Positions 3,237 through 37,898 of a stretch of 64,000 nucleotides of DNA are shown piece after piece. Below the pieces are notes generated by a model that had not been told where the DNA came from, made no database searches, and worked only from the letters and a program-made list of their open reading frames with translations. The stretch lies in assembly GCA_022530585.1 (NCBI GenBank), contig CP092821.1:1089509-1153508 (forward strand), read 5' to 3'. Made by a program: the position numbers and the translations under genes. Numbering within the stretch: position 1 is the stretch's first letter; each line of letters starts with the position of its first letter. Source of the DNA: Candidatus Nealsonbacteria bacterium DGGOD1a. GTDB taxonomy: Bacteria; Patescibacteriota; Minisyncoccia; Minisyncoccales; UBA5738.

Positions 3237-3597
3237 GGGGATGTAAGGCTTCGATGGGAAGCCGGTCTCGCGATCGCAAGCCAAGTAGCCGGATCTTGTA
3301 AAAACCGGCAAACTTCAAAAGTGCCAAATCATTCGCATTTAGCGCACCTGAATTAGTCTACGCTTAATAGCCGACTAAATCTGTCCGATGAACGGATTCT
3401 CCATTAAATTTATCGGGCATAACCTTTTGGAGATAGGGTTCTCTTCCGCCTTAAAGAGCGCCCGAAACAAACAAGGCGAAGAATCCAAGAATTTTGTCGG
3501 GTTTTTATCCTGGGTTCTCAAACAAACCGGACTAAGCTTGTAGATATCGCGCGCCACGGTTTTTCAGATACGGGTTCAAGTCCCGTCGTCTCCACAA
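3237..3597 (+). ncRNA. ssrA: tmRNA (SsrA)
   Basis: The 5' GGGGATG pairs with the 3' CGTCTCC. The 3' end has a tRNA-like T-arm, CGGGTTCAAGTCCCG. The internal tag frame from GCA at 3308 reads (A)NFKSAKSFAFSAPELVYA and stops at TAA 3365-3367. It lies next to smpB. CCA is not encoded. Confidence 0.85.
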
Positions 3598-4131: not shown

Positions 4132-4189
4132 ACCATAAAATCATAAAAACATTTAATCATAGAATCATAAAACACGGATTCAGGAAAAC

Positions 4190-4375
4190 ATGAAAACAAG
4201 AAAATCAATCACAAAGCGTTTCAAGATCACCAAGAACGGCAAAATTATGCGCCGGGCGACCGGATCCTGCCATCTGCGTTCGAAAATGTCGGGCGACAAA
4301 GTCCGCGCCGGCCGCAAATGGGTTCCGTTAAACGAATCCGAAGCCAAAAAAATCAGAAAACTAATCATTAAATAA
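4190..4375 (+). CDS. rpmI: 50S ribosomal protein L35
   Basis: 61 aa. MKTRKSITKRFKITKNGKIMRR. Confidence 0.95.
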   Translation: MKTRKSITKRFKITKNGKIMRRATGSCHLRSKMSGDKVRAGRKWVPLNESEAKKIRKLIIK

Positions 4376-5250: not shown

Positions 5251-6008
5251 TAATTATTCAAATTTTGAAAATTCGGGCAAATAACCGCGCATCTGCCGGC
5301 AACGCACATCGACGCGAACGGACAGCGCGACATAGCCAGATAATCGCCCGGAGTGGAACACTCAAAATCATGGACGCAGACAATATCGGTCATTTTTTCC
5401 ACTTTATAATCAAAATCCGCGTTAAAATAGGTTTTGGCGCGTTCGCGGTTAATCTGAAAAGTTTTTTCATTATACGAATTTAAGGCTTTATTGCGGTATT
5501 CGGAAGGAAAAAATTCGTCAATGTCGCGCGCGAAATAACTGCCGTCGCGCGGCGCCCAGTGCGACAGCGACCCATCGTCAAGCTTGATAATTTTTGCCGG
5601 ACCGGCCGCCCCGCTTCCCTCGTATATCTTCCCGCCATCCAAATAAAATTCTTCGCACGAATAATTCAAATAAACCGCTTCTTCGCCATCGCTTTGGCCG
5701 ATTTTTTCATAAGCGCAAAAAACTTTGCCGCCTTTCGCCGCCGCGGCGAAATTTTTCTCAAGATATTCCGCGATATCGCAATCGATATTGTAAACCGACA
5801 GATCGCATTCGCCGGCGAATGGAGTTTCCGTTTTCTCGGATTTTACCGCGTCGATATCGGAATTTCTTTCCTTTCTGATCGAGAGGCCTTCACTGTCATA
5901 ATCGGGTATAATCGTTTGCGGAATTATCGATACCGCCACAAAAGTGAGAATCGCGGCCGAAATCAATATAAATATGGTTAATTTATTCATATAAAATTTT
6001 GTTATCAA
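5250..6008 (-). CDS. Hypothetical secreted or membrane-anchored protein with a Cys-rich C-terminus
   Basis: N-terminal hydrophobic anchor NKLTIFILISAAILTFVAVSII. The C-terminus reads CVHDFECSTPGDYLAMSRCPFASMCVAGRCAVICP. No family recognised. Confidence 0.55.
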   Translation of the reverse strand: MITKFYMNKLTIFILISAAILTFVAVSIIPQTIIPDYDSEGLSIRKERNSDIDAVKSEKTETPFAGECDLSVYNIDCDIAEYLEKNFAAAAKGGKVFCAYEKIGQSDGEEAVYLNYSCEEFYLDGGKIYEGSGAAGPAKIIKLDDGSLSHWAPRDGSYFARDIDEFFPSEYRNKALNSYNEKTFQINRERAKTYFNADFDYKVEKMTDIVCVHDFECSTPGDYLAMSRCPFASMCVAGRCAVICPNFQNLNN

Positions 6009-6516
6009 GCTGGATCAACGCGGCAATAATTGATTGTTTCACGGTATCTTTGCGGCACCATCGGTTTTTAGTCAGTATCCCGATCGCGCCAAGCGACAAA
6101 CCGATTTTGGGGTCGCCGGTCAAGCCCAGTTCATAAAACGCCTGGTTGATATCCCTGCCCTTCCCCACCAATTCAATCGCTTTGGGCGGATATTCAAACG
6201 CCGCCGATGTCCCCAGATAATATCTTTGCCCGTCATAAAACGCGCAAACGCACAAATTCATAAATCCGGTGGCAGCCTGCCCAACCGACATCAACCCGTC
6301 TTCCACGCCCACCGAAAAATCACAATCGCTAAACGCGGTTTTAGCCCGATTTTTGGCGCCGCGAACAGTTTCTTCCAAGCTTTTGGGCTGATCGTCCACG
6401 CCGGACTCCGTTCCGATCGTCTTGATCCGGGCTTTGTTCAAAAAATCATATTCGGCGGTTATTTCCCGCAAAGCGTCGGCCTTGATTTTATTTTTGGTGC
6501 CGATATTTATTTTCAT
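5983..6516 (-). CDS. Non-canonical purine NTP phosphatase (inosine/xanthosine triphosphatase, YjjX/DUF84-like)
   Basis: KINIGTKNKIKADALRE...ESGVDDQPKSLEETVRGAKNRAK...VGVEDGL matches the YjjX-family layout. Confidence 0.7.
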   Translation of the reverse strand: MKINIGTKNKIKADALREITAEYDFLNKARIKTIGTESGVDDQPKSLEETVRGAKNRAKTAFSDCDFSVGVEDGLMSVGQAATGFMNLCVCAFYDGQRYYLGTSAAFEYPPKAIELVGKGRDINQAFYELGLTGDPKIGLSLGAIGILTKNRWCRKDTVKQSIIAALIQLDNKILYE

Positions 6517-6581
6517 TTTTTGCTTGCTACCAAAAACGGCCTTGTGAAAGCCGTTCTGACCTTAATCTCGACATGCCTGAA

Positions 6582-7100
6582 TTACTTTACCAAATCTTCC
6601 GGCGTCTCATTTTCACTTATCACGCCTTCAACGCTGAAGTTAAACGGCGCCGGGGCCGTGCACCCGGTTTTATTCTTGCAAGTTCCGGTCGCTTTCAACA
6701 CCGCCTTGCCTTCGGCAACCACTTGATACACCGCCTGCACTCGGGCATCGCCGACTTTAACATCTCTTCGCGACAAAACATTGCTGTCACTGGAAACAAT
6801 ATCCCAATTATAATCCGTTCCCAACATTAAAACAAGATTTTTCCCGGGAGTGGCGGAATATGTCTGGCCGTTATCGTCCAAAGTGACGCGCAAAGGCAAT
6901 TCGCCGTCTTGCAGATTCAATTGCTTGGCAACCTCTTCATTGGCAAGCTTGGTTTCGGATTTAACCGGCTGATTCGCGGTTTCATCTCCAACCGGCGGAG
7001 TCACGGCCGGTTTTCCGGAATTCTGCATTATTATAACAATGCCGACAACCGCGACAAGAATCACTCCCGCGGCGACATAATACGCAATTTTTTTATCCAT
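6582..7100 (-). CDS. Hypothetical membrane-anchored extracytoplasmic protein
   Basis: N-terminal TM helix IAYYVAAGVILVAVVGIVIIM followed by a beta-rich domain. No motif recognised. Confidence 0.5.
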   Translation of the reverse strand: MDKKIAYYVAAGVILVAVVGIVIIMQNSGKPAVTPPVGDETANQPVKSETKLANEEVAKQLNLQDGELPLRVTLDDNGQTYSATPGKNLVLMLGTDYNWDIVSSDSNVLSRRDVKVGDARVQAVYQVVAEGKAVLKATGTCKNKTGCTAPAPFNFSVEGVISENETPEDLVK

Positions 7101-9160: not shown

Positions 9161-9411
9161 GCAAACACCCGCATTTTATCCATTTCTAACATTAACAAAA
9201 ATTTTATGAAGATCGCGCGTTATAAAATACAAACCAACATAATCTTTCCATCTGGCGCGCATTCCCAGCGCGAACGCCTTCATCGCCGCCAGAGTAAATA
9301 AATCCGGCATTTTAACGATCAAATCGAATTTTTGAAAATATTCAATAGATCAATTTACCACAAAACCGCCCCAAAATCCACTCCCGCCCTTCCTGTTTAT
9401 GCAACACAAAA

Positions 9412-9651: not shown

Positions 9652-9789
9652 ATGAGAGGACACACAAAGCTCTTTGTATTAGAAATGGAAATGCGTCCGT
9701 ATGAAGAAAAAATCGACGCAATGCTATCTTTGATTCATGGCCAACAAAATGCCATCATAATAAAAAAATTCATAGAAAAGGGCAAATAA
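9652..9789 (+). CDS. Small hypothetical protein (45 aa)
   Basis: AAGGTG Shine-Dalgarno about 7 nt before the ATG. No homology recognised, and it could be spurious. Confidence 0.25.
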   Translation: MRGHTKLFVLEMEMRPYEEKIDAMLSLIHGQQNAIIIKKFIEKGK

Positions 9790-9820
9790 ATGCCATCTTT
9801 TTTTATAAAAATTAACAATC

Positions 9821-10327
9821 TCAAATTTTGCGCGCGTCATAGGCCCAGTGCAAAACCGCTTGGCGCTGTTTTTTGCGGCACGACAAATCGCGCGGCGCGC
9901 AATTATTTTTGATTTGGGCGATGTGCCGTGCGATCGCTTTCCATCTTTTGATCTGCCATTGGTCATATTCGGGCATTCGGCGGCCCATATAATAGCGGCA
10001 ATACCACTGAAACCATCCCCGCGGATCCGCCGGATGGATCCAGCCTTTGGCACGCCAAACAGAAAGCGGCTGTGACGCGTTGACACCGAAGCAGTTTAAT
10101 TTCGGATCGTGAAATTCCGAGTTTAATTTCGCTTTTTCATACCAATCTTTCGGAAATTCCTTTTGGCAATCGGTCATATATTTGCCGCCGAATATTCCCA
10201 TCGCCAGCATTCGCTTGGGTGTCAATTCCGGCAAAAAATCCGAATCGAAATTCTCCCCCATCGGCTCGATCAAAAAATATTCATATCCTTTTTGCATTTT
10301 GTCATTGACCGTGATTTTTATTTTCAT
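9821..10327 (-). CDS. Conserved hypothetical protein rich in W/Y (GWFQWYCRYYMGRR motif)
   Basis: Its ATG overlaps the stop of the upstream hydrolase as ATGA (10324-10327). The sequence looks like a conserved family, but I cannot name it. Confidence 0.6.
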   Translation of the reverse strand: MKIKITVNDKMQKGYEYFLIEPMGENFDSDFLPELTPKRMLAMGIFGGKYMTDCQKEFPKDWYEKAKLNSEFHDPKLNCFGVNASQPLSVWRAKGWIHPADPRGWFQWYCRYYMGRRMPEYDQWQIKRWKAIARHIAQIKNNCAPRDLSCRKKQRQAVLHWAYDARKI

Positions 10328-11128: not shown

Positions 11129-12514
11129 TTATAAAATTAACTTGTCGCGATGAATCAACCTAACATTTTCCGTTTTTGCTCGCGCGATCATATCTTTGGT
11201 GAAACCGCTTTTGGAAAACAGCGCGTAGTATTCTTTTCTGGCGTCGCGATTCCAATCAACCAGCCGCGCTTTTCTTTTCAGATTTTCATAAATATCGGTG
11301 CCGATCATTTTTTGCGACCATTTGGCTTCGCCAAATAAAATTTCCTTGGTTTCCGAATTCAACGCCACAACATCAATTTCCTCATTTTTATCCCACCACT
11401 TCCCCGCCCGCTCAAAATAGAACAAACCGTCCTCAATCTCCCGCGCCAATTCAAGGCAAATGTCTTCATACGCGATTGATTCAAGCACGAAAAAATTTTC
11501 TTTTATTTTTCTCAACGGCTCATCGTGGCGGCCGATTTCCAAATCGCTTTTATATAGATAAACATATTGAAACCAAAAACGGACGAAATTATCGCAAAGC
11601 TTATATAATCCTTTCCGCGATTTTGCCGCCGAAGATTCGGTAACCGAAAATTCTCTTTCCACGATCTGCAGTCTTTCCAAAACCGACAGATATTTGTTCG
11701 TTAAATTTTTATCAAGCCCGGTTTCGTTGACGATGTTGCCCAGCTTTGTTTTTCCAAACGCCGCCGCCTTTAAAATCGCCATGTAATTCTTTGGCTCCCT
11801 CAATTCCTGCCGAAGGATAAAATCAACCTCGTTGAAAAGATAAGCTGTCGGTAAAAATATTTTATCCAAAATATTGGCCTCAATGGAACTCTTGGGATTG
11901 AATTCCGCCAAATAAGCCGGCATTCCGCCGGTTATCGCGTATATTTCCAAAAAATCATTAAAACTTTTATCGGGAAAAAATTGCCAACTCGGCCGAAACG
12001 CAAGCGGTTTTAACAACAACTGCCCGGTGCGCCGGCCGAAAAGCGGCGCGCTGTAAATCAAAGTTTCCGATTCCATCATCGCGATACTTGATCCCGAAAG
12101 GATAAGAAAGATATTGCTTTCTTTTAAAAACTCATCCCATCCTTTTTGAAACAGCGAAGAAACCGCCTTGTCGGCCTCGGCCAAATAGGGATATTCGTCG
12201 ATCGCCAAAACAAACCTTTCTCTAATGTTTTTTTTAAGATATTCAAACACATCAAGCCATTGGGCAAAACCGTTGCGCGCCAATGCCGGATCGCCAAATT
12301 GACCGCCGATCGCCCGGCCCAAGCTTTGCAATTGCTCTTTTTCCGTGCTCTGGCTGGCCAAAAAATAAACCGCCTGTTTGTCTTTGATAAATTGCTTGAT
12401 CAACTCGGTCTTTCCCACACGCCGCTTGCCATAGATAATAAAAAGTTGCGCGGTATCACTCGCCCATCTTTCTTCCAGCGCTTTTAATTCTCGCTCGCGG
12501 TCAATGAATTTCAT
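11129..12514 (-). CDS. AAA+ ATPase of the archaeal-ATPase/DUF234 type
   Basis: FIDRERELKALEERW...IIYGKRRVGKTELIK carries a Walker A motif. The C-terminal part resembles DUF234. Confidence 0.75.
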   Translation of the reverse strand: MKFIDRERELKALEERWASDTAQLFIIYGKRRVGKTELIKQFIKDKQAVYFLASQSTEKEQLQSLGRAIGGQFGDPALARNGFAQWLDVFEYLKKNIRERFVLAIDEYPYLAEADKAVSSLFQKGWDEFLKESNIFLILSGSSIAMMESETLIYSAPLFGRRTGQLLLKPLAFRPSWQFFPDKSFNDFLEIYAITGGMPAYLAEFNPKSSIEANILDKIFLPTAYLFNEVDFILRQELREPKNYMAILKAAAFGKTKLGNIVNETGLDKNLTNKYLSVLERLQIVEREFSVTESSAAKSRKGLYKLCDNFVRFWFQYVYLYKSDLEIGRHDEPLRKIKENFFVLESIAYEDICLELAREIEDGLFYFERAGKWWDKNEEIDVVALNSETKEILFGEAKWSQKMIGTDIYENLKRKARLVDWNRDARKEYYALFSKSGFTKDMIARAKTENVRLIHRDKLIL

Positions 12515-16311: not shown

Positions 16312-16572
16312 TTATTTTATTGTTTCTTCCTGATCTTCGCGCCAGGGCGGGGTGCAATTCAAAAGCAATTTCATTTTGCCTTTGTAGGTGAACTTGTTGC
16401 CGGCGGGAATCACCGCCAAATCCCCCGCCGCGCAATCTTCGCGATTGCCATTGATTTCAAAATAACCGCTCCCTTCCAAAACATAATAACAAAAATCGCA
16501 TTCGCGCTGGCAAATAACGATTTCATGCCCGGCTTCAGTTTCAACTAAAACAAAACTCATTTTGGTCTTCAA
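16312..16572 (-). CDS. Cupin-domain protein, paralog 1
   Basis: EGSGYFEINGNREDCAAGDLAVIPAGNKFTYKG. It is about 80 percent identical at the DNA level to 24118-24354. A conserved in-frame 5' extension is broken by a TAA (see findings). Confidence 0.7.
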   Translation of the reverse strand: MKTKMSFVLVETEAGHEIVICQRECDFCYYVLEGSGYFEINGNREDCAAGDLAVIPAGNKFTYKGKMKLLLNCTPPWREDQEETIK

Positions 16573-16655
16573 CCTGCTTGATGGAAAAATTTTTTTCGTT
16601 ATGCCAAACTTTTAAAAACTATAATCTTCCGGTTTTTCTATCGCAAACATGTTTT

Positions 16656-17318
16656 TTAATTTTTGATTATTTTGCTTTTAAATTTTTCGGCCTCATTGAT
16701 AAAGTAATTTTGCCAATCTTTACGGTTAATTTTTATTTTCATCACCGGGCAATCTTTCACTTCGGCGGCCAATAAAAAATTACTTCCCAACTGCAAATAA
16801 TCAATTGGCACATCAAATTTGATCCGCGCTTTTTTGGCCAAATCCGTAATTTGAAAACCGAATTCATTATGCAAGCAATACAGATCAATGAAATCGCGCG
16901 CCCGGGGATTTTGGTAAATGGTGAAAATTTTGTTAACTGCGATATCAAGTGCTCCGTCGATCCGCAAATTGCCAATCTCGGTTTTTTGCTGAATTTCAGC
17001 AAAAGGAAAATATGTAAACTCAGTTTTAACAATGTCAGCGTCAAAATGGATAAAAAACAGATTGCGATTAAAACTCTGCTGGTAATCAATTTTTTTGAAG
17101 CCGAGTTTGATTTTGTTCTTTTTGAAAAAAACATTGATCGCCTGCACATCAAATTCATCTTCAGAAAAAAAATCCAGATCTTCAGATAAGCGATGATGCA
17201 AATAAAATTCGGCTAACGCCGTGCCGCCAGTGAGATAAAAACAACGGCAAATTTCTTTGTCGCCGCTGATTGCAAAAAGCAAATTTGTTTGATTTTCGGT
17301 TAAAATCGTTTTTGCCAT
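16656..17318 (-). CDS. Nucleotidyltransferase AbiEii/DUF1814-like toxin-family protein
   Basis: FYLTGGTALAEFYLHHRLSEDLDFF is the family N-terminal signature. Confidence 0.7.
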   Translation of the reverse strand: MAKTILTENQTNLLFAISGDKEICRCFYLTGGTALAEFYLHHRLSEDLDFFSEDEFDVQAINVFFKKNKIKLGFKKIDYQQSFNRNLFFIHFDADIVKTEFTYFPFAEIQQKTEIGNLRIDGALDIAVNKIFTIYQNPRARDFIDLYCLHNEFGFQITDLAKKARIKFDVPIDYLQLGSNFLLAAEVKDCPVMKIKINRKDWQNYFINEAEKFKSKIIKN

Positions 17319-21269: not shown

Positions 21270-21834
21270 TCAATATAATTCGGAAGCCTTTAAAAATCCT
21301 TTCATTAATTCTTTGTCTCCGGCGATCTTGCATTTGCCGGATTTGACCGCCCGCCCCAGGGCGGGCAGGCCTTGCGGCCGCAAGTTGCAGACATATTTGT
21401 TTTTCATCGCCGCCCAGAAATATTCAACGGGATTAAGCTCGGGCGCGTAGGCCGGAAATCTCTCAACTCGCAACCAGTATTTTTGAGTTTTTAAATATTC
21501 TTTGACGATCTTGGCGCGATGTGCCGCCAATCCATCCCAGAAAAGAAGCAATCTTTTTCCCTTAAACCAGTATTTTAATAATTTTAAATATACAAGCACA
21601 TCTTCTTTTTTGACGCTTCCTTTTTTGCTTTTCAAAAACATCGCCGGATTGCTTCCTGCCGGCGCGCAAACCAGCGTTGCCGTCAAACTCATTGCGGCCC
21701 ACGATCCGGTGGATTTGATTACCGGCGTTTTGCCTTTAATCGCCCAGGTTTTTCTGACCGTGGGGCGGTCGGAAATTCCCGATTCATCATGGAATCCCAG
21801 CTTAAAATGATGTTTTTGCGCCCATTTTTTTTAA
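21270..21834 (-). CDS. IS630 transposase, DDE catalytic part (orfB, reached by a +1 shift at the A8 run)
   Basis: FHDESG ... LLFWDGLAAHRA ... YAPELNPVEYFW forms the DD(35)E triad. The frame opens exactly at the A8 run (21825-21832). Confidence 0.8.
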
Positions 21835-22308
21835 CCTTGGAAAGGTTTTTACTCTCCAAGTTTTGATGGCTTTCTCATCTCTTTCTTTGGCTTTGATTTC
21901 GGGTTTTTGGCTGGTAAAACCCAGCGAGATTACCACCCTCCAGACATGGCCGGGGTGATATTTTGTTCCCGATATCTTTTTGATCAGATCTCGCAGTCTT
22001 GCCAGCGTCCAAAGATCGGTGGCATATCCCTGCTTTTGCGCTCCTTTGAGGATCGCTTTTTTGATTTCGCGTTTTTCCTCTTGGGTCAATTTGGAATCCG
22101 GCCCGGGATTGCCTTTGCTTTTCAGGCCATCCCATCCTTGGGCTTTGTATGCTTCCACCCAATTGCTCACCGCTTCAAAACTGACTCCCAGTTTTTTGGC
22201 GATTTTATATTGGGTTTGGCCTTTTTCCCAAAGCTTTATCGCTTTGATTCTTCTTTTCTGAAGATCATCTTTGCTTTTGCAAGATGGTGAAGATTTACGA
22301 TTTTTCAT
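21802..22308 (-). CDS. IS630 transposase, N-terminal HTH part (orfA)
   Basis: QYKIAKKLGVSFEAVSNWVEAYK and ATDLWTLARLRDLIKK are the HTH motifs typical of IS630/Tc1-like transposases. Confidence 0.85.
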   Translation of the reverse strand: MKNRKSSPSCKSKDDLQKRRIKAIKLWEKGQTQYKIAKKLGVSFEAVSNWVEAYKAQGWDGLKSKGNPGPDSKLTQEEKREIKKAILKGAQKQGYATDLWTLARLRDLIKKISGTKYHPGHVWRVVISLGFTSQKPEIKAKERDEKAIKTWRVKTFPRLKKMGAKTSF

Positions 22309-24117: not shown

Positions 24118-24354
24118 TCATCCAACCATTTCCTCCTGCTCCACGCACCACGGCGGCGTGCAATTCAAAAGCATCTTCATCTTTCCTTTATAAGTGAATT
24201 TATTGCCCGCCGGTATCACCACCAAATCCCCCGCAGTGCAATCCTCACGGCCGCTATTAATTTCAAAATATCCGTTACCTTCCAAAATGTAATAACAAAA
24301 ATCACATTCCCGCTGGCAGATTGTGGTTTCATGCCCGCTTTGGGTTTCAATCAA
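24118..24354 (-). CDS. Cupin-domain protein, paralog 2
   Basis: EGNGYFEINSGREDCTAGDLVVIPAGNKFTYKG. A conserved in-frame 5' extension is broken by a TGA. Confidence 0.65.
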   Translation of the reverse strand: MIETQSGHETTICQRECDFCYYILEGNGYFEINSGREDCTAGDLVVIPAGNKFTYKGKMKMLLNCTPPWCVEQEEMVG

Positions 24355-24464
24355 AACAAATCTTGTTCTTACCGTCAGACCGCTTGATGGAAAAATTTTT
24401 CCCTTGATTCAGAATTTCTCAAAACTATAATCTTTCGGCTCTTTTATTACAAACATATTTTTTA

Positions 24465-27828: not shown

Positions 27829-29970
27829 ATGGATTTCGACGCTTCAATTGAAAAATTCACGCGAATTTCGGCGGCCTATAAATCCCGATTGAAAAATATG
27901 GGAATTTTGACGATGCGGGATTTGCTCTATCACTTCCCCTCGCGCTACCATGATTTTTCCGCGCGGACGAATATCGCCGATTTGGAAGTCGATAAAACCG
28001 CCTGCGTCCAGGGAACCGTCGAAACAATAAAAATGATCCGCATTTGGAAGCGGCACATGACGCTCATTGAAGCCATGGTGACCGACGCTACCGGCTCGGT
28101 AAAAGCTTTATGGTTCAACCAGCCATACCTTGCCGGCACCCTTAAAAAGGGCACTATAGTTTGTCTGGCGGGAAAACTGGTTGACAAAAAAGGCGCCAAA
28201 TACCTTTCCAACCCGATGTATGAAAAAGTTCGCGACGGTTTTGAAACCGAAGAAGATTACACCCACACCGGACGGATGGTGCCGGTTTATCCGGAAACCG
28301 CGGGTGTTTCCAGCCGCTGGTTGCGCTATATTATCAAACCGCTCCTGGCCGGTTATTCAAAAATGCCCGATCCCCTGCCTGAAAATTTGCTCGGCGATTA
28401 TGATTTCATGCCGTGGCGCGACGCGATAAAACAAATCCATTTCCCGGAATCCGATGAATTCGCCGCCGCCGCGCGGAAGCGTTTCGCGTTCGAAGAATTG
28501 TTTTTCATCCAGTTGGCGGTTTTGCGCGAACGCGTGCGGCTGAACAGCGAAAAAGCTTTGGCAATCCCGTTCGACGCGGACTTGGTGAAAGAATTCGTGC
28601 AATCTCTGCCCTTCACCCTTACCCAGGCCCAGCGCGAAACCGCCTTTCGGATATTGAAAGATTTGGAAAAACCGCGGCCGATGAACCGCCTCCTGCAAGG
28701 CGATGTCGGCTCGGGCAAAACCGTCGTGGCGATGATCGCGGCCCTGGCAACCGCTAAAGCCGGCGCGCAAATCGCGGTTATGGTGCCCACGGAAATCCTC
28801 GCCCAACAACATTACGCGAGCTTTTCCAAAATGTTATCGCCGCTCAACATTGAAATCGGCTTGCTTTGCAGCAAGAATTCCCGGCTTTCTTCATACGGAT
28901 CCGCGTCAAAATCCGCGGTGCTGGAACAGGCGAAAAGCGGCGAAGTTTCCATTTTGATCGGTACCAACGCTTTGATTCAAAAAGGCGTTGAATTTAAAAA
29001 TCTAGCTTTGGTGGTTTTGGACGAACAGCATCGCTTCGGCATCGACCAGCGCGCGGCGCTCGCAAAAAACAACAAAACAAATTCAAAAAAATCCTTGGTG
29101 CCGCATTTGCTTTCAATGACCGCCACGCCCATCCCCCGCACCCTGGCGCTCACAGTCTATGGCGACCTTGACCTGGCACTGATCAATGAAATGCCCGCGG
29201 GCAGGCTTAAAGTTGGAACAAAGATTGTCCTTCCCGATGGTCGCGCCAAAGCTTACGAGATGATCCGCAAAGAAATCCAATCCGGCCGCCAGGCGTTCGT
29301 TATCTGCCCGCGCATCGACCCCGACGAGGACAAGCCCGAACAAAAGCGGGACGGAATTTTATTCGACCCGAAAGCCGATTACTCCGGCGCGGACGCGGTC
29401 AAGGCCGTCAAAGAAGAATATGAAAAACTGTCAAAAGAAATTTTTCCGGAATTGAAAGTCGGCATGATGCACGGCAAAATGAAAGCCGCGGAAAAAGAAG
29501 AAGTGATGGTAAAATTAAAAGACGGGAAAATAGACATTCTGGTTTCCACCTCGGTGATCGAAGTCGGCATCGACATTCCCAACGCCACGATCATGGCCAT
29601 CGAAGGCAGCCACAAATTCGGCCTGGCGCAATTGCACCAGTTCCGCGGCCGTGTGGGTCGCGGCGAACACCAATCGTATTGCCTGCTGTTTTCCGATTAC
29701 CCCACCCGGCGCCTGAACGCGATGCTCAAATTCGACAGCGGCTTCGACCTGGCCGAAAAAGACTTGGAAATCCGCGGCCCGGGAGAAGTGTTCGGCTCCC
29801 AGCAATGGGGCGCGCCCGATCTAGCCATGGCTTCCCTCGCCGACGTGTTCCTGGTGGAAAAATCCCGCAACGCCGCCAAAGGCATTCTCCAAAACGACCC
29901 CGACCTCTCGCGCCATCCCGCACTCCGCGCCCGCATCCAGCACTTCCGCGACCGCGCCCACCTGGAGTGA
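27829..29970 (+). CDS. recG: ATP-dependent DNA helicase RecG
   Basis: 713 aa. Wedge-domain N-terminus, Walker A GDVGSGKT, and VLDEQHRFG. Confidence 0.95.
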   Translation: MDFDASIEKFTRISAAYKSRLKNMGILTMRDLLYHFPSRYHDFSARTNIADLEVDKTACVQGTVETIKMIRIWKRHMTLIEAMVTDATGSVKALWFNQPYLAGTLKKGTIVCLAGKLVDKKGAKYLSNPMYEKVRDGFETEEDYTHTGRMVPVYPETAGVSSRWLRYIIKPLLAGYSKMPDPLPENLLGDYDFMPWRDAIKQIHFPESDEFAAAARKRFAFEELFFIQLAVLRERVRLNSEKALAIPFDADLVKEFVQSLPFTLTQAQRETAFRILKDLEKPRPMNRLLQGDVGSGKTVVAMIAALATAKAGAQIAVMVPTEILAQQHYASFSKMLSPLNIEIGLLCSKNSRLSSYGSASKSAVLEQAKSGEVSILIGTNALIQKGVEFKNLALVVLDEQHRFGIDQRAALAKNNKTNSKKSLVPHLLSMTATPIPRTLALTVYGDLDLALINEMPAGRLKVGTKIVLPDGRAKAYEMIRKEIQSGRQAFVICPRIDPDEDKPEQKRDGILFDPKADYSGADAVKAVKEEYEKLSKEIFPELKVGMMHGKMKAAEKEEVMVKLKDGKIDILVSTSVIEVGIDIPNATIMAIEGSHKFGLAQLHQFRGRVGRGEHQSYCLLFSDYPTRRLNAMLKFDSGFDLAEKDLEIRGPGEVFGSQQWGAPDLAMASLADVFLVEKSRNAAKGILQNDPDLSRHPALRARIQHFRDRAHLE

Positions 29971-30005
29971 AGCTCGAATGTTCGAATATCCGAAATCCAA
30001 AACAA

Positions 30006-30036
30006 AAATCCGCAGGAGTCTTGCTCCTGCGGATTT
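30006..30036. terminator. Bidirectional terminator hairpin between recG and the convergent small ORF
   Basis: 13-bp stem AAATCCGCAGGAG / CTCCTGCGGATTT. A T-run follows on the minus-strand reading. Confidence 0.65.
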
Positions 30037-30073
30037 GCGTCTTGATAAAAAGACTATAAACACCAGATTGCGT

Positions 30074-30265
30074 TTACAATAATTCCAAAACATCCTCGGC
30101 GGTCAAAACTTCGGGGTTGCCCAACATATGGCCCAAGCGATTGATCTCGGGCCGCATCAAATTGGCTTTTCCCAAAACATCGGTCTGGGCGAAAGTCTTG
30201 CGCGCCGGACCATCGGAAATTATCCGGCCAAACGAATCGCGGCAAACATATTCGTAAAATTTCAT
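30074..30265 (-). CDS. Small hypothetical ORF (63 aa)
   Basis: Open frame followed by a terminator. No family recognised, and it may be a gene fragment. Confidence 0.3.
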   Translation of the reverse strand: MKFYEYVCRDSFGRIISDGPARKTFAQTDVLGKANLMRPEINRLGHMLGNPEVLTAEDVLELL

Positions 30266-30281
30266 ATAATTTTACTTCTTC

Positions 30282-30348
30282 CTCCCCTTTTCCGTGATCC
30301 AGAAACCGAGGGGCTTGTTGAGAATGAGGCGGGTCTGAGATTCCAGCG
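30282..30348. repeat. 67-bp direct repeat, copy A (a non-coding copy of the glycosyltransferase 3' end)
   Basis: 61/67 identical to 32902-32968. It translates as ..LESQTRLILNKPLGFWITEKGRKK* against ..LESQTRLIINKPLGFWITEKGRKNGK*. Confidence 0.85.
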
Positions 30349-30359
30349 ATAGTAAAAAA

Positions 30360-31535
30360 TCATTCTTGCGACAAATAGTAAATTTCCATTTTTTCCGCGG
30401 GGGTAAGGCCTTGCAATTCTTCACGGGGGGTGTTGTTCCAAAGCTGGTTGGCATATTCAAAAAACGCAGTGAATGATTTTTCGTCGGGAAAATTTATTTT
30501 TTCCGAAATCATTTTCATGATCGGGCCGGATGATCGGCTTTCGTTCATTGCTTTTTGAATATCTTCCACCTGCCAGATGTCCCCTGCGCCAACCAAATCC
30601 AGCACTCGTTGAAACTCATTTTCAAAATCCGATCGTTGGCGGATTTCAAGCCATCTTGCCAAACAAAACGGTTCAATCTCCTGCGCGTCGCGCTCCGCCA
30701 GCTCTTTTTGAAACTGTTTATCCAATTCGCTTCCCTTAAATTTGCGCTCCATTTCTTTTAATCTCTCTTCCATCTTTTCAATATCTACTTCATTGCCGCC
30801 TCCTTCATCATCCCCTTCGGCAACTTTTTCCAACAAATGATTCCATCTTTGTTCCCAATTTCGTTTCCATGATTTGTTATCGGGATATTTTTCCGCATAG
30901 CTGATGCCATTGGCCAAATAATAATAATGCCACTTCATTTCATTTATCGCAATATCGTCTTTTACTTGTTCAAAAAACACCAAAGATCGCTTCAAAAGTT
31001 CTAAAATTATTTTATCTTTGGTATTAACCAAAATACTACCAATAAAATCTTGGATATCTTTGTCCTTTTCAAACAATTTTATCAAAAAATTTTTAACCGG
31101 AATTTGGTCTATAAATTCGCCCAGCACGCCAACGGCAAAAATTTTCGCGCGCCACGGATCATTGTCAATCCTGCGCTCGATAAACTCAATCGCAAGAGGG
31201 ACAACCGATCCCGGATGCGCTCTTTCAATCAGCACCAGCGTATCCTCAGCCGCCTCTTGTGTAAAATCCTCATCGCTGTCAAAAACATCAAGCAAGTACG
31301 GAACCGCATCTTTGTCGCGCATAATCCCCAAAACCGCAATCGCCCAAATCGCGGCCAAAGATTCGCAAACCCGAAAATTTTCAACAATTTCGCGCAACGC
31401 GGTTTTTAATTGCTTGTTTTTGTCTTGCCGCGCCAAATAATTTACCGCTTCCCTGATTGTTTTCGGATCATCCGAATCCAAGTCATTCAACCTTTTTTTA
31501 ACCGCCGGATTTTCAATTTTTGTTTCAATTTCCAT
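30360..31535 (-). CDS. HEAT/ARM-like repeat protein (possibly DUF1186-like)
   Basis: DPKTIREAVNYLAR...DKDAVPYLLDVF are HEAT-like repeats. Acidic central coil. The C-terminus reads ..LWNNTPREELQGLTPAEK. The family call is tentative. Confidence 0.5.
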   Translation of the reverse strand: MEIETKIENPAVKKRLNDLDSDDPKTIREAVNYLARQDKNKQLKTALREIVENFRVCESLAAIWAIAVLGIMRDKDAVPYLLDVFDSDEDFTQEAAEDTLVLIERAHPGSVVPLAIEFIERRIDNDPWRAKIFAVGVLGEFIDQIPVKNFLIKLFEKDKDIQDFIGSILVNTKDKIILELLKRSLVFFEQVKDDIAINEMKWHYYYLANGISYAEKYPDNKSWKRNWEQRWNHLLEKVAEGDDEGGGNEVDIEKMEERLKEMERKFKGSELDKQFQKELAERDAQEIEPFCLARWLEIRQRSDFENEFQRVLDLVGAGDIWQVEDIQKAMNESRSSGPIMKMISEKINFPDEKSFTAFFEYANQLWNNTPREELQGLTPAEKMEIYYLSQE

Positions 31536-31555
31536 GGTTTTAATTTTTAATTATT

Positions 31556-32791
31556 TTAAATTTTCCAATACGGAATAAATTTTACTGTTGTGGTTTTTAT
31601 TTTTACCACCGTATCCAGCGACAGATTGACCACCCACGCTTCATTGGGTTTGTATTTTTCAACAAACGACAGCAACGACTTTCCCAAAACCGGCGATTTC
31701 AAATCGATGTATTTGACTTCAACCGGCAGCACTTCCCGGCCGCGATTGATCACAAAATCCACTTCGGCTCCGGAAAGGGTGCGCCAAAAATTTATCACAG
31801 CGGCGGTATCTTTGTTTTTTTCCAAAAGAGCGTTTAAAACAAAATTTTGAAACACAAAAGAAAAGCTTTGCGGATCGGATAACGCCCCCATTAATTCTAT
31901 GGAAAAATTGCGCAAACCAAGATCATAGAAATATGCCGACGACGACCGAGTGATTTCTTTTTGCTTGTTGGTAAAGTATGGCCGGACGATTTTGAGCAAA
32001 AAAATTTTTTGCGCGTACCACAAATATTTTTTCAACGGCGCGAAAGTCAAATCTATTTGCTGGCCCAATTTTGAATAATTCAAAATTTGCCCGGATTGGC
32101 TGGCAATGATTTTAACCATCAACGAAAACGCTTCCGGCCGGTCGATTTCCAAAAGTGAAAGCAGATCTTTTTCAACGCAACTGCGAAAAATCTCCCCCAT
32201 TATTTTGTTTTTCTCCAAAACATGGTTCGCCAAAATAACGCGCGGATAACCGCCGAAATTGAGATATTCTTTCAAAAAAATTTTTGTTCTGTCCTTTTCT
32301 ATTTCAAAATAACTTCCAATCTTGTCTTCATAGCGGTAATCTGTTTTGAAATTCGCGAATTCCTTAAAATTAACCGGATTAATTTCGAAAATTCTTTTTC
32401 GTCCGGCCAGCGATTCGTGAATTTTTTCTTTCAGTTCCAAACTTCCGGATCCGGAAACAATGAATTTATACGGCAAATCCAAATCATAAATTCCCTTCAA
32501 AAAAATCCCGGCATCCTTTTTCCGCTGGATCTCATCGATAAAAACAAACCCCCCGGGCGCAAGATGAATCCTGATTTTTTCAATCAATTCCGCCTGGCTC
32601 GTGAAATATTTTTCATCCGCCTCATTGTCCAAATTTAAAAAAAGATATTTTTTACCGATACTTTCAAGGTGCCCGGCCAACTCACGCATCAATGTAGTTT
32701 TGCCCACTTGCCGCGGGCCGACCAACAAAGTAATTTCTTTTTGAGTTAAATGCTCTTTTAATTCTTGAAAAATCTCCCGCTTAATCAACAT
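31556..32791 (-). CDS. AAA+ ATPase (AAA_14 + DUF4143-type)
   Basis: LLVGPRQVGKTTLMRE is the Walker A and VFIDEIQ the Walker B. The C-terminal ..AEVDFVI..EVK.. is typical of DUF4143 proteins. Confidence 0.75.
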   Translation of the reverse strand: MLIKREIFQELKEHLTQKEITLLVGPRQVGKTTLMRELAGHLESIGKKYLFLNLDNEADEKYFTSQAELIEKIRIHLAPGGFVFIDEIQRKKDAGIFLKGIYDLDLPYKFIVSGSGSLELKEKIHESLAGRKRIFEINPVNFKEFANFKTDYRYEDKIGSYFEIEKDRTKIFLKEYLNFGGYPRVILANHVLEKNKIMGEIFRSCVEKDLLSLLEIDRPEAFSLMVKIIASQSGQILNYSKLGQQIDLTFAPLKKYLWYAQKIFLLKIVRPYFTNKQKEITRSSSAYFYDLGLRNFSIELMGALSDPQSFSFVFQNFVLNALLEKNKDTAAVINFWRTLSGAEVDFVINRGREVLPVEVKYIDLKSPVLGKSLLSFVEKYKPNEAWVVNLSLDTVVKIKTTTVKFIPYWKI

Positions 32792-32885
32792 GGTTTTGAG
32801 TTAAAATATCAATATACTTTAATTTTAACCTTATTATTATTAAAGTCAAGATTAATAATTATCGGGTTAACATTGAAGTCAATCT

Positions 32886-34430
32886 CTATTTGCCATTCTT
32901 TCTCCCCTTTTCCGTGATCCAAAAACCGAGGGGCTTGTTGATGATGAGGCGAGTCTGGGACTCCAGCGCCGGAAGCGAACCGAAAAATATCAGCGTGATC
33001 GGCAGACACAGCCATTGAAGCAACATTGATATGTGGCGCCAGCGGCCGTAATGTTTGGGCCGCGGCGGCAGCAACAACATACTGATAATGGCCGACACCA
33101 CCATCCCCACCATTGCCGAGGTCATAATCACCGAAGTTATCATCGGCAAATTATACGAAAGCAAAGTGGCATTGAAATTTTTGCCGCCCATCAGCAGAGG
33201 AAGCCATCCCAAACCGAATGTCATAATCGAACCGGTCGCCCACGACCAGAAACCTTCAATCATGGTTATAATATGGAAAACTTTTTCCCGCAGTTTTATT
33301 CCGGCGCTGGCCGGATTCATAAAAAGATTGAAAAAAACATAGGGCAAATTTTCCACGCCCCACGACCAGCGCCGCTGCTGTTTGTATTGGTTGACCATGG
33401 TGCGGAATGTCGACTTGCCAAGCACCGCGTCCATTGAAACCGGATAATACATGGGAATTGCCTTATAACGGCCGCCGTAATAGAAATAGGCGCGCCAGAA
33501 AATGCGCGAATCGTCGGAAACCACATTATAAGGATAACCCACCTCCAAAAGCGCCTTTAAAGGCATAGAATGGCTTGAGAAGGTTACCAATTGTTCGGGC
33601 CGCTCCTGTTGCATCATTTCCCAAAAAGTCGACGAAGTGGCAATTATGCGGCTCACCAGCGGCGCCTCCCAAATGTTGTTGTTATATACGGGTATCGGCT
33701 GGTAGCTCTTGTGAAGCCGGTCGGATTCGTTTAAATAATACCATGTCAAACAGGAAAAATACTGCGGATACGGCTTGGTGTCAATGTCGAAAAGCGACAC
33801 GACGATATTCTCTTGCGGGATATTCATCCCGGGCAAATATTTTTCTTTAACTTCTTTGAACGCCCAGTTTACATTGGCGCCTTTCCCCTGCAGTTCGCCG
33901 CCGATTCCCTTGGGATGCACCACCAGCCAAAACGCGAAAAATTTTGAACGGTATTCCGGCTCGATCCTGGCCGCCAATTCTCGCGCCGATTGAATATCTT
34001 CGATTGCCAGCAAAATAATAATTCTATTCTTGGGATAATCGGCGTTGACAAGCGAATCAAGCGTCGCCCGCACCACTTCAGGCCCCTCGCTGGCAAAGGG
34101 CAGAGCAATTAAATGATAAATATCTTGCCATTCGTCTTTATTGTCGCGTTCAAGTTTTGATCTCCAATCAATGGCAATATTTTTTTTCATTTTCCCGTAA
34201 CTGGCGATTTGATGGGCCGCCAAATATAAAACCCGGCAAAGCCAGTAAAAATCAAAAGAGATAATGAAAATCGCGACCGCGAACGGCCAAATCCCGGACA
34301 AAACAAAACCCAAAATAAGAGTTGCCCATGAAACAAACCCGGGAAGCATTTCCAAAAAACGGTACGCGGCGCGATGCCAATGATTTTTAAAATCATCGGC
34401 GCGCGAAAGATTCAAATAATCGATTGCCAT
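32886..34430 (-). CDS. Membrane-bound family-2 glycosyltransferase (processive type)
   Basis: The DxD region is FDIDTKP and the QxxRW motif is QQRRWSWG. TM helices flank the catalytic domain. The start is set at ATG 34430 because the longer ORF overlaps tRNA-Glu. Confidence 0.8.
   Translation of the reverse strand: MAIDYLNLSRADDFKNHWHRAAYRFLEMLPGFVSWATLILGFVLSGIWPFAVAIFIISFDFYWLCRVLYLAAHQIASYGKMKKNIAIDWRSKLERDNKDEWQDIYHLIALPFASEGPEVVRATLDSLVNADYPKNRIIILLAIEDIQSARELAARIEPEYRSKFFAFWLVVHPKGIGGELQGKGANVNWAFKEVKEKYLPGMNIPQENIVVSLFDIDTKPYPQYFSCLTWYYLNESDRLHKSYQPIPVYNNNIWEAPLVSRIIATSSTFWEMMQQERPEQLVTFSSHSMPLKALLEVGYPYNVVSDDSRIFWRAYFYYGGRYKAIPMYYPVSMDAVLGKSTFRTMVNQYKQQRRWSWGVENLPYVFFNLFMNPASAGIKLREKVFHIITMIEGFWSWATGSIMTFGLGWLPLLMGGKNFNATLLSYNLPMITSVIMTSAMVGMVVSAIISMLLLPPRPKHYGRWRHISMLLQWLCLPITLIFFGSLPALESQTRLIINKPLGFWITEKGRKNGK
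32902..32968. repeat. 67-bp direct repeat, copy B (the genuine 3' end of the glycosyltransferase gene)
   Basis: See 30282-30348. The two copies start 2620 bp apart. Confidence 0.85.
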
Positions 34431-34485
34431 ATCTGTATTATATGCGAAAAGGCGGCTTTTAACCGCCTTGTCGCCAGAAACCAAG

Positions 34486-34557
34486 TGGCCCCAGCGGGAA
34501 TCGAACCCGCGTTTTCGCCTTGAAAGGGCAACGTCCTGACCACTAGACGATGGGGCC
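34486..34557 (-). tRNA. tRNA-Glu (anticodon UUC)
   Basis: GGCCCCA TC GTCT AGTGGTCA GGAC G TTGCC CTTTCAA GGCGA AAAC GCGGG TTCGATT CCCGC TGGGGCC A. The cloverleaf fits, and no CCA is encoded. Confidence 0.92.
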
Positions 34558-34782
34558 AAACGCAAAAATCATAACAAAAAAACGCGAAAAAGTCCACACT
34601 GGCCGGAATCATGCCAAATTATCAATCATCTCCAAGCCGATATGCGAATCATTGTATTCCAAACATTCGGGCGTCAAATCGATTACCCGTTTTAAAAACC
34701 CCGCGTTTCCAACTCCCCCGCTTTCTCAAAATTTTCCGCCGCGCGCAAAGTTTTATTCAATCCCTGATCTTAGTCTTTCATA

Positions 34783-35573: not shown

Positions 35574-36713
35574 TTATTTTAATATGTCCAACAATTCCTG
35601 GAATACAAAAACGCGGTTCCTCTTTCTTCCCGGCTCCTCTTTTAATATCCCCAACTGGATGAATTTTTCCAAAAGATTATAAATGGTTTGGGGATTTTTA
35701 GTTTTTAATTTATCTTTTATTTTCGCGTATGTGATTATCGGCGAGACAAAAAGTGATTCCAACAGATTGAGCGCGTAAACCGAATTGGCGGCGGTAATTT
35801 CTTTTTTCAAACGATCGTTTAATTCCAAAATTTTCGAGATTGAATTTTGCGTCTTTAACGATTGAGTTATCAACGCCAGCAAAAAAAATTTAAGCCATGA
35901 TTCCCAGTCGCCCCTTTCGGTCACTCCGCGCAGATAACCGTAATAGTCCTGCCGGTTTCTTTCAAAATATTCGCTGATATACAACAACGGCGACGACAAC
36001 AAATCGCGCTGGTACAAAAACAGCGGAATCAACAACCGGCCCACGCGGCCGTTTCCGTCGCGGAACGGATGGATTGACTCCAGCTGATAATGCGCCGCCG
36101 CGATCTGCACCAACAAATCTTTTTCCTGATTTGAGTTAACATACTTTTCCCAATTCGACAGCAAGGCCGGCAATTCCGCCGGCGCGGGCGGCACATAACT
36201 GGCCTCCTCAATCCGCGCTCCGGGCATGCCAATGTACACCTGTCCGGTCCGGAATTTGCCGCGGTCTTTCTCCGCGCCGCGCGATAAATCAAGCAACAGA
36301 TAATGGATTTTTTTAATAAATGATTGGTTAATCGATTTTGTTTTCAACTCCTCCATCGAAAAATTCATCGCCCGACGATAATTGATAATTTCGGTGATTT
36401 CTCGATTCTGGCCGCCGGCAAGCTCGCCGGCGGGTTGGGCTTCATATTGAAAAACATCTTCCAGCGTCGCTTGCGTGCCTTCAATGCGAGAGCTCAAAAC
36501 CGCCTCTTTCGTCAGCAACGGAGTTACCAGCAATTCCGGACTCAAAATATTTTTTCGCAACAAACCGTTCAATTCGCCGATCGCGCCGTGCGCTTCGCCA
36601 ATCACGCGGATCAGCGAATCATAATTTATTTTCGGAGGCAACGGATCCAATATATAAGATTTGATCGGCATAAAAAGTTTGTTGAAATAAATCAAGCGCT
36701 TGAGTTTTGCCAA
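35574..36713 (-). CDS. Fic-family protein (AMPylase type) with a C-terminal winged-helix-like region
   Basis: Canonical Fic motif HPFRDGNGRVGR. Confidence 0.9.
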   Translation of the reverse strand: MAKLKRLIYFNKLFMPIKSYILDPLPPKINYDSLIRVIGEAHGAIGELNGLLRKNILSPELLVTPLLTKEAVLSSRIEGTQATLEDVFQYEAQPAGELAGGQNREITEIINYRRAMNFSMEELKTKSINQSFIKKIHYLLLDLSRGAEKDRGKFRTGQVYIGMPGARIEEASYVPPAPAELPALLSNWEKYVNSNQEKDLLVQIAAAHYQLESIHPFRDGNGRVGRLLIPLFLYQRDLLSSPLLYISEYFERNRQDYYGYLRGVTERGDWESWLKFFLLALITQSLKTQNSISKILELNDRLKKEITAANSVYALNLLESLFVSPIITYAKIKDKLKTKNPQTIYNLLEKFIQLGILKEEPGRKRNRVFVFQELLDILK

Positions 36714-36899: not shown

Positions 36900-37898
36900 T
36901 TACCTGAAGATTTTTCCGAAAAATCCTTTGGCGGATTGATCATCGTTCCGTTGCGCGGGAATCCGTCCGCCATTCCCCGCCCCGTTGGCAATGGTCTTAT
37001 TTTTATTTTGCGGATTGATGTTTGATTGATTATTTTCCGGCGCGTATGCCGCGTCTTCCCGATAGGCAACTTTTAATTTTATTGGATTGGCGACCGGTTC
37101 GACAACTTTCGGCGCGGGCGAAGATGATGGAGAAACTTCTTCGCTTGATACCGCCGGGATTTCCGTTCTGGGTTGAATCTTGCGCTCGTTTTTCGGCTTC
37201 TCAAGAAGCACCATTTTGTCTTGCAATCCTTTTAATAAAATATTTGTTTCGCGATTCCTTTCAATCAGTTGGCCGATTTTTTCATCAAGATTTTTGATCT
37301 GTCCGTCCTTGACCTGCAACTGATCGCGCAACATTTCGGTCGTTTCTTTTAAAAGTATGATTATCTGTTCGTTGCTGTGGTCTTGATTTGGCGCCGTGTC
37401 TTGAAAGGGTTCGCTGTGATTCGCGGTCGGCGGAGTCGGTTCGCCAGTCGTGTTTTCCCGCGCCTTATCTTCCGGCGCCGCGGCAATCGTTTCCGCTTCT
37501 TTGGGGAATGGTTGCGCCGGCGCTACGGGTTGACCGGGGATTGTCTGGCCAGGCGCGTTTTGAAAAGAAATTCCCGGCATCATAAACGGTTGCGGCATAG
37601 TTCGGGGTTGCTGGTAATTAATCGATGCGAACGATGCCATATTCTGCCTCATGTTCGACAATTGCGGCATATAATTAAACTGCCGTATTTCATCTTCCCT
37701 TTGCTTGAGAACTTCCACTTCGGCCCGGCTAAAACGATATTCAAGCGTCCCTTGTCTGCTTTTTATACCCACCGGGTGGAGAATGTCCCGATGGACATAT
37801 CGGCTAATCGTCCTGGAACTTTTACCAAGCATCTCGCAAACTTCGTAGAGAGAAAGGATATAATCCTTGGGTGTTTGATTGTTATTTTGTTGTTCCAT
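36900..37898 (-). CDS. DNA-binding protein with an excisionase/MerR-type HTH and a long low-complexity, coiled tail
   Basis: LSLYEVCEMLGKSSRTISRYVHRDILHPV..EYRFSRAEVEVL is the excisionase-family HTH pattern. Confidence 0.6.
   Translation of the reverse strand: MEQQNNNQTPKDYILSLYEVCEMLGKSSRTISRYVHRDILHPVGIKSRQGTLEYRFSRAEVEVLKQREDEIRQFNYMPQLSNMRQNMASFASINYQQPRTMPQPFMMPGISFQNAPGQTIPGQPVAPAQPFPKEAETIAAAPEDKARENTTGEPTPPTANHSEPFQDTAPNQDHSNEQIIILLKETTEMLRDQLQVKDGQIKNLDEKIGQLIERNRETNILLKGLQDKMVLLEKPKNERKIQPRTEIPAVSSEEVSPSSSPAPKVVEPVANPIKLKVAYREDAAYAPENNQSNINPQNKNKTIANGAGNGGRIPAQRNDDQSAKGFFGKIFR

Follow-up and report, generated by a model that had tools for sequence, protein, structure and literature searches.

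How does a pair of genes come to lie between two copies of the 3' end of the gene next to it? This question is raised by a two-gene cassette within the window analysed here, namely, a 64-kb stretch of the genome of Candidatus Nealsonbacteria bacterium DGGOD1a, to which all positions without a locus label refer. The cassette encodes an ATPase with AAA_14 and DUF4143 domains (hereafter, the ATPase) and a HEAT-repeat protein (hereafter, HEAT), and it sits between two core genes, one for a membrane glycosyltransferase-like protein (GT) and the other, convergent with it, for RecG. A sequence-only reading of this DNA had taken the repeats that bracket the cassette for attL and attR, the footprint of site-specific integration. 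Comparison with relatives leads us to a different answer, which we regard as probable: an accessory cassette, housed in a hypervariable GT-RecG slot, whose contents are swapped by homologous recombination, and a repeat that is a scar of the C-terminal-displacement type rather than an att pair.

A cassette between two copies of the GT tail

A repeat scan and direct reading of the region gave the following order along the minus strand, which carries all cassette-side genes: tRNA-Glu, GT, a 94-nt spacer, the ATPase gene, the HEAT gene, repeat copy A, a short open reading frame (ORF) termed orf63, a hairpin and, convergently on the plus strand, the RecG gene. The direct repeat is a single family of two copies, 30276-30348 and 32896-32968, which span 73 nt, are identical at 66 of these positions (90%) and are offset by 2620 nt; the 61 identities over 67 nt counted previously are exact, and the repeat simply extends further. 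Copy B (32896-32968, minus strand) is the functional 3' end of GT, that is, its last 24 codons, and copy A (30272-30348, minus strand) is a non-coding, displaced relic of the native GT tail, old stop codon included, which begins 11 nt past the stop codon of the HEAT gene. That copy B is the coding end of GT, and copy A a non-coding duplicate past the end of HEAT, had been proposed from the sequence alone, and ORFs and translation bear out both assignments. The reading frame of copy A still gives LESQTRLILNKPLGFWITEKGRKK followed by a stop, and its peptide differs from that of copy B at one of 23 aligned residues, plus the last few residues ahead of the stop.

When up to three mismatches are allowed, the 38-nt core of the repeat occurs at just these two sites in the window, with none expected from 100 shuffles. 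A terminator or repetitive extragenic palindromic (REP)-like motif dispersed through the genome was ruled out, given that only two copies exist in the window and that in all relatives examined the repeat corresponds to the GT tail. An origin of the repeat by tandem duplication and later deletion was likewise ruled out, since it is native downstream sequence, and not a second cassette, that follows copy A.

The cassette has the composition of accessory DNA. Its GC content of 39.2%, against a window mean of 45.5%, falls at the 2.8th percentile of equal-sized sliding windows, and GC content at third codon positions is 0.44-0.46, as compared with 0.54-0.65 in the neighbouring genes, in agreement with the AT-richness that had been judged by eye. 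Both genes are intact in all relatives, besides which decayed C-terminal fragments of the ATPase gene persist at L010, L016/L118 and L017/L119/L120 (L-numbers are locus labels), and both are under purifying selection, with dN/dS values of 0.11-0.19 for the ATPase and 0.10-0.19 for HEAT. Between the window and L014, dS is 0.44 for the ATPase and 0.63 for HEAT, two to three times lower than for GT (1.36) and RecG (1.12), which implies that the cassette was exchanged between these two lineages after their flanks had diverged.

Slot contents and exchange breakpoints in relatives

Relatives were collected by scanning one genome per species and Joint Genome Institute (JGI) metagenomes with the GT protein, together with exact-protein lookups, and their slots were mapped by tblastn. 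GT homologs were found at 80 genome loci and 80 metagenome loci, usually with a convergent RecG next to them, and GT is kept, and kept convergent with RecG, across Paceibacteria-type Patescibacteria. Within the same clade as the window, represented by about 45 loci with GT at least 66% identical, GT and the convergent RecG are constant, and at least 10 cargo states occur between them, in a slot that measures from 0 to about 9.4 kb. At the lower extreme, GT is followed directly by RecG, with gaps of 40-128 nt (L008, L011, L108 and L127), and at L013 only orf63 separates the two. The predicted empty site, with GT directly before the 30074-30265 region, was thus found at L013, along with the further empty slots just mentioned.

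This region corresponds to orf63 (30074-30265, minus strand), a 63-codon chimera left over from an ECF transporter operon, in which the start of EcfT (MKFYEY) is joined to the C-terminus of EcfA; the EcfA remainder matches the C-terminus of the fused EcfA at L009 and L083, where the intact operon occupies the slot. The intact operon occurs together with EamA and more genes at L009, L083 and L104, and EamA stands alone at L100-L102, L105 and L107. Pfam identified toxin-antitoxin (TA) cargo as HicAB at L017/L120 and as SocA plus a partner at L014/L121, while sequence inspection of L123 pointed to a HigB-like plus helix-turn-helix (HTH) module and a Phd-like module. Other cargo includes a DUF6398/TPR gene (L087) and a large secreted protein (L122). 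Taken as a whole, the cargo is enriched for defence and TA genes, comprising HicAB, SocA, the HigB-like and Phd-like modules, and the PDC-S01 family, to which the ATPase belongs, with a SoFic-type gene lying upstream.

The cassette itself appears in several versions. ATPase, HEAT and relic tail occur together in the window, at L014/L111 and at L089/L115; the same two genes lack the relic tail at L091/L121 and also at L087, where the contig begins within the ATPase gene. The ATPase alone, with a relic tail and the same boundaries (CTGGAATCC...GAAGAA), is found at L092, L093, L095 and L112, where the repeat copies are 98.6-100% identical. HEAT alone is found at L007, with the relic tail present, and at L012/L109/L110, and at L103 it comes directly after GT, on a contig that ends inside HEAT. 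The earlier suggestion that the pair moves as a unit therefore holds in part: the two genes are adjacent at several loci, but each also occurs without the other, so that an obligate two-gene system is not upheld.

In addition, L007 (6597-7724), L089 (8374-9501) and L115 carry a second, convergent DUF4143 ATPase of 375 amino acids between the relic GT tail and RecG, so that a PDC-S01-type gene lies there on the other side of, or next to, HEAT. A relic of the RecG tail beyond this reverse ATPase was sought at L007 and L089, and only short collinear matches, which were not significant, were obtained.

Among these loci the cassette is polymorphic both in its presence and in its alleles, its exchange is more recent than the divergence of its flanks, and the breakpoints fall in three places, namely, the tail of GT, the relic tail and the end of RecG. 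The clearest case is that of L092 and L014, whose flanks are 99-100% identical over about 4 kb on the left (from the Fic gene through GT) and 3.1 kb on the right (from RecG onward). Between these flanks, L092 holds the ATPase only and L014 holds the ATPase, HEAT, a relic tail and the SocA module, with ATPase alleles that are 70-83% identical. On the left, the breakpoint is found about 25 nt into copy B, in the last 50 nt or so of GT, and on the right, about 100-130 nt inside the 3' end of RecG. Here homologous recombination, with its anchors at the ends of both core genes, has replaced the whole slot. A second comparison is provided by L014 and L089, which have GT, ATPase, HEAT and relic tail in common, with identities of 97-99% over the ATPase and most of HEAT and of 83-90% over the end of HEAT and the relic tail. 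Exactly after the relic tail these two loci part, into SocA at L014 and into the reverse DUF4143 ATPase at L089, which indicates that the relic tail also marks a joint.

The two repeat copies of the window can be read in the same way. From about repeat position 26 of copy A, through orf63, to the end of RecG, the window is 94-97% identical to L013, whereas the GT bodies are about 74% identical; the distal 46 nt of copy A and what follows them are identical or near-identical to the functional tail of L013 and its downstream sequence. Since the DNA downstream of copy A is collinear with that of an empty site, copy A, or at least its distal part, is the resident, native tail. When the window is compared with L007, whose GT body is 95-97% identical, mismatches rise from about one per 27 nt to about one per 8 nt at 32970, the start of the repeat. 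Judging from these switches in identity, copies A and B both look hybrid, copy B seeming to combine a host-like start with a remainder that travels with the cassette. The switch point lies at about repeat position 25 in two comparisons and at the repeat start in that of the window with L007, positions that are set by few informative sites. Relic tails of different genomes, in turn, differ mainly at third codon positions, and hence descend from different functional tails, not from one decayed ancient pseudogene.

The last 75 nt or so of GT are the best-conserved stretch of the gene at the DNA level, with 92% identity between the window and L013 as against 63-80% elsewhere in GT, and this conservation includes synonymous sites. 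It makes the tail a place where diverged lineages could naturally cross over. Candidate causes of the conservation are frequent recombination, gene conversion or a function of the sequence itself.

Origin of the repeat and rival explanations

In the reading that we favour, incoming DNA carrying a GT 3' end and the cassette would have recombined by homology inside GT, and an illegitimate join would have connected its other end to the beginning of the resident GT tail, in the manner of C-terminal displacement or homology-facilitated illegitimate recombination (HFIR). The incoming tail would then have completed GT, becoming copy B, and the resident tail would have been pushed downstream as a relic, copy A. 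Since then, as the comparisons of relatives show, slot contents have been gained, lost and swapped between lineages by RecA-type homologous recombination, with crossovers at the conserved end of GT, at the relic tail and at the 3' end of RecG. Turnover of the slot does not need a cassette-encoded or neighbouring recombinase.

Displaced 3' ends have been described at Rhs, contact-dependent inhibition (CDI) and type VI secretion system (T6SS) effector-immunity loci, for which C-terminal displacement by HFIR was proposed (PMC5361080). On the reading favoured here, as in those systems, a new 3' end and downstream genes arrive, an orphaned copy of the old 3' end persists behind them, and one junction would be homologous while the other would not. 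Unlike in those systems, what was displaced is a conserved 24-codon tail that acts neither as toxin nor in immunity, the encoded peptide hardly changes from the old tail to the new, and the cargo is a separate gene pair rather than a variable toxin tip. The slot also resembles core-gene-flanked hotspots, such as the 'core defence hotspots' of Pseudomonas aeruginosa and the integration hotspots of the Escherichia coli pan-genome: two core genes bound a variable cargo rich in TA and defence genes, mobile-element hallmark genes are absent, and the cargo differs between near-identical strains (here, L092 and L014), the breakpoints falling within the flanking genes. It departs from them in its reduced Patescibacteria host, in its tiny size and in the relic tails of its flanking genes that split it into sub-slots. 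We regard it as a further example of these known kinds and not as a new class of mobile element. Its significance lies rather in showing that defence and TA genes continue to be replaced in a symbiont genome that is very small and poor in mobile elements, through a tiny slot between two core genes, where leftover gene tails mark the joints and possibly serve as joints.

Cassettes bracketed by pieces of a neighbouring gene are not confined to the GT tail. At L009, a DUF4143/AAA_14 ATPase of 391 amino acids, 28% identical to that of the window, lies downstream of RecG and is bracketed by 9775-9867 and 11140-11234, a repeat of 95 nt, 90.5% identical, made of the last 8 RecG codons and the terminator hairpin. 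At L017, and also at L120, a HicB/HicA pair downstream of RecG is bracketed by 2727-3073 and 3915-4260, a 349-nt duplicate of the RecG 3' end with 87% identity. The difference in boundaries between these two RecG-tail repeats favours homology-plus-illegitimate joining over a single att site. Elsewhere, a 93-nt repeat drawn from the 5' portion of a lipoprotein gene encloses an AbiEii/AbiEi pair (L053, 7967-8059 and 9774-9866), and a 395-nt, 96% identical repeat of the tail of a DUF6498 gene encloses an ArsR-like gene (L035, 9287-9681 and 10612-11006). In all, about ten repeat-bracketed blocks of 1-4 genes were found in 1.2 Mb of Patescibacteria loci. It is tempting to speculate that relic gene tails act as portable homology arms, by which defence and TA cassettes would be inserted, shuffled and removed without a recombinase, as a general capture route typical of this lineage instead of a set of isolated scars; we consider this generalisation doubtful, albeit worth stating.

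Several points weigh against the reading that we favour. Simple strand replacement by HFIR normally deletes recipient DNA and leaves no duplication, and the founding event, with its one homologous and one illegitimate junction, is something that we infer and have not observed. The boundaries of the repeat, moreover, are the same in the ATPase-only and ATPase-HEAT cassettes, which, together with the near-perfect identity of the copies in the ATPase-only lineages, requires that the events be recent or that gene conversion acted, and would be compatible with a defined att site as well. The two independent comparisons in which the switch falls no more than 1-2 nt from repeat position 25 may be a sign that the crossover point is fixed. 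Lastly, the defence role of PDC-S01 has candidate status only (PMC12988326).

The constant boundaries, the near-perfect repeats of some lineages and the coincidence of two switch points near position 25 are also what a site-specific integrative element would leave behind, in which case the 73-nt repeats would be attL and attR, made by a tyrosine or serine recombinase at an attB site in the 3' end of GT, with the recombinase lost or acting in trans and the cassette being a cargo-only mobilisable islet. The likeness to integrase-made islands, which use the 3' ends of tRNA or protein genes as att sites, extends to direct repeats of a gene 3' end around AT-richer foreign DNA, to a target gene that stays intact and to empty sites in relatives. 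Patescibacteria do carry integrases: at L044, a tyrosine recombinase gene (5366-6292; PF00589, E = 2e-31) lies just outside a pair of 53-nt repeats, 98% identical (6581-6633 and 9227-9279), that enclose three genes, an arrangement that, in this related genome, has the appearance of a true integrase-type element. In contrast, no recombinase was found in the block itself in the Pfam search of both cassette genes, as the sequence-only reading had noticed, and for the called genes up to about 10 kb away in each direction, the precomputed Pfam annotation lists neither PF00589 nor a resolvase nor any other recombinase family. Neither is there one in the Pfam annotation of 6 other loci, and none is evident in the ORFs of 15 further slots, mostly not Pfam-scanned, which read as transporter, TA or unassigned genes. 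Nor do the breakpoints seem to keep to a fixed core, given that the window and L007 switch at the repeat start and not at position 25, and that whole-slot replacement uses the far flank as well, crossing over inside RecG. Repeat identity ranges from 77% to 100% across loci, the cargo is separable, and the 95- and 349-nt RecG-tail repeats leave no single att site that could explain the general pattern. Close homologs of the cassette genes, finally, never occur at another site: ATPase homologs at least 72% identical are always directly after GT, and all close HEAT relatives with placeable flanks lie in the GT-RecG slot. On these grounds the attL/attR assignment finds no support, and we consider an integrative element unlikely, though an integrase acting in trans retains some plausibility.

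The nuclease-like domain of the ATPase brings up a self-mobilising, homing-like alternative, where the DUF4143 PD-(D/E)xK ATPase would cut GT or RecG tails that lack a cassette, and repair would copy in the gene together with a replacement tail. Free-standing homing endonuclease genes with a duplicated 3' end of the target gene are known from the atp6 gene of fungal mitochondria. In keeping with this idea, the nuclease motif is conserved, the repeats of the ATPase-only cassettes are almost perfect, and two unrelated DUF4143 paralogs (28-36% identical) each lie directly downstream of, and co-directional with, a core gene whose tail brackets them, GT in the window, L014, L089 and L092, and RecG at L009. 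Yet the same kind of bracket surrounds HicAB (L017), AbiE (L053) and the ArsR-like gene (L035), all without such an ATPase, and the HEAT-only variant of L007 keeps the repeat. Conversely, other DUF4143 genes, at L051 and at L096-L099, the latter a 64%-identical homolog of the ATPase in an unrelated locus, were searched for bracketing repeats and none were found. Moreover, the supposed target tail is present twice in carriers, which would leave them without immunity. We therefore regard homing as very improbable. A Campbell-type insertion mediated by RecA differs from the displacement reading only in the origin of the duplication: a circle bearing one tail, the palindrome that precedes the cassette and the ATPase, with or without HEAT, would enter when one crossover took place in the GT tail and would leave by the reverse reaction. 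Such a crossover would give exactly this structure, with both copies hybrid as they look in the window and with identical boundaries in the two cassette versions, and L013 looks like a clean empty site for it. Against it, no circle was observed, recombination works poorly on 73 nt with 90% identity, and the DNA that competent cells take up arrives as linear single strands. Whole-slot swaps through RecG homology are also left unexplained, and we give this route little chance.

The cassette genes and their surroundings

The ATPase gene (31556-32791, minus strand) encodes 411 amino acids, in which Pfam recognises AAA_14 and DUF4143 (E-values of 1e-31 and 1.5e-30), as had been anticipated, with the ATPase fused to a PD-(D/E)xK nuclease-like domain; DUF4143 was included in a survey of the PD-(D/E)XK superfamily (PMC3424549). 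Residues 1-389 match the PADLOC profile PDC-S01 with E = 4.4e-78 and with the same two-domain architecture. PDC-S01, an ATPase fused to a PD-(D/E)XK domain, is among the commonest phage-defence candidates and awaits validation (PMC12988326). The Walker A (GKTT), Walker B (DE) and E/D...ExK motifs are kept in 15 homologs, including paralogs that are only 28-31% identical. Membership in a defence-candidate family gives substance to the earlier idea of a defence or conflict module as far as the ATPase is concerned, and, from this membership and from its context, the most likely role of the ATPase is that of a candidate defence or conflict gene that works alone and targets nucleic acids. It departs from the single-gene definition in PADLOC in that it often precedes a HEAT gene, which that definition does not include. 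The slot also offers a clean natural context for this candidate family, with ATPase alone, ATPase plus HEAT, HEAT alone and neither. A phage or viral origin of the ATPase was considered and rejected, as IMG/VR gave no close relative and only three matches, at 25-30% identity; sequence searches for relatives of solved structure returned none.

HEAT (30360-31535, minus strand; 391 amino acids) belongs to a small, lineage-restricted family and matches HEAT_2 of Pfam with E = 7e-8, while PADLOC and NCBIfam gave no match. Its close relatives are very rare, 7 clusters having been recovered by a word search of 5.8 billion proteins, and a full hidden Markov model (HMM) search added about 50 more distant representatives. 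These distant relatives are 27-43% identical among themselves, and half of the 16 that were scanned have a SEC-C zinc motif at the C-terminus, which the protein of the window lacks. The single genomic context retrieved for them (L180, 2146-3495) has an adjoining AbiEii toxin gene and no ATPase neighbour. The AlphaFold2 (AF2) model of HEAT (pLDDT 57.8) has confident helical repeats at residues 1-160 only and is poor beyond them. From its distribution we infer that HEAT is a dispensable, lineage-specific companion of the ATPase.

The spacer between GT and the ATPase gene contains an imperfect palindrome (32816-32879, minus strand) with 23 of 28 arm positions paired and TCTTGACT as its loop. It is specific to the cassette and is centred on TTGAC(T), which is also the -35 box of an overlapping promoter-like site, TTGACT-16-TAAAAT. 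The palindrome is kept ahead of whichever gene leads, be it the ATPase or HEAT, at L007, L010, L012, L014, L017, L088, L089, L091, L092, L103 and L121, and is probably a putative promoter or operator of the cassette. A dispersed repeat resembling a miniature inverted-repeat transposable element (MITE) was ruled out, the palindrome being single-copy in the window and unique to the slot.

Of the core genes that bound the slot, GT (32886-34430, minus strand) encodes a membrane glycosyltransferase-like protein of 514 amino acids, a length read from its ORF and translation. Its start is the ATG at 34430, as in public records; the mechanical ORF (32886-34565, 559 amino acids, TTG start) overruns the gene for tRNA-Glu(UUC) (34485-34557, minus strand) that adjoins the GT start upstream. 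The previous label of GT2 has in its favour a QQRRW motif in the sequence and is otherwise sustained just by a sub-threshold Pfam match to Chitin_synth_2; sequence searches of NCBIfam and PDB gave no match. At the other boundary, RecG (27829-29970, plus strand) was assigned by its Pfam families and by synteny in relatives, and a terminator scan placed between the slot and RecG a terminator-like hairpin (29998-30044, strand unassigned), an inverted repeat with a stem of 13 pairs and a T run.

The conserved neighbours upstream of GT, on the minus strand, are genes for a SoFic-type Fic protein (35574-36713; PADLOC SoFic, E = 2e-111) and for an HTH_17 protein with a weak mad1-like match (36900-37898), which give the wider neighbourhood a defence flavour. 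Elsewhere in the window, two copies of a small cupin-like gene, 78% identical (16323-16658 and 24129-24464), are 7.8 kb apart. Between them are genes for a DUF2339 protein, an AbiEii-like ORF, a flavokinase-like gene, methyltransferase pieces and a ferredoxin-like gene, as well as pieces of an IS630-type transposase (HTH_23, DDE_3) at about 21270-22308. A transfer-messenger RNA (tmRNA) gene occupies 3237-3597 on the plus strand, and the tag peptide given for it by ARAGORN is AKSFAFSAPELVYA.

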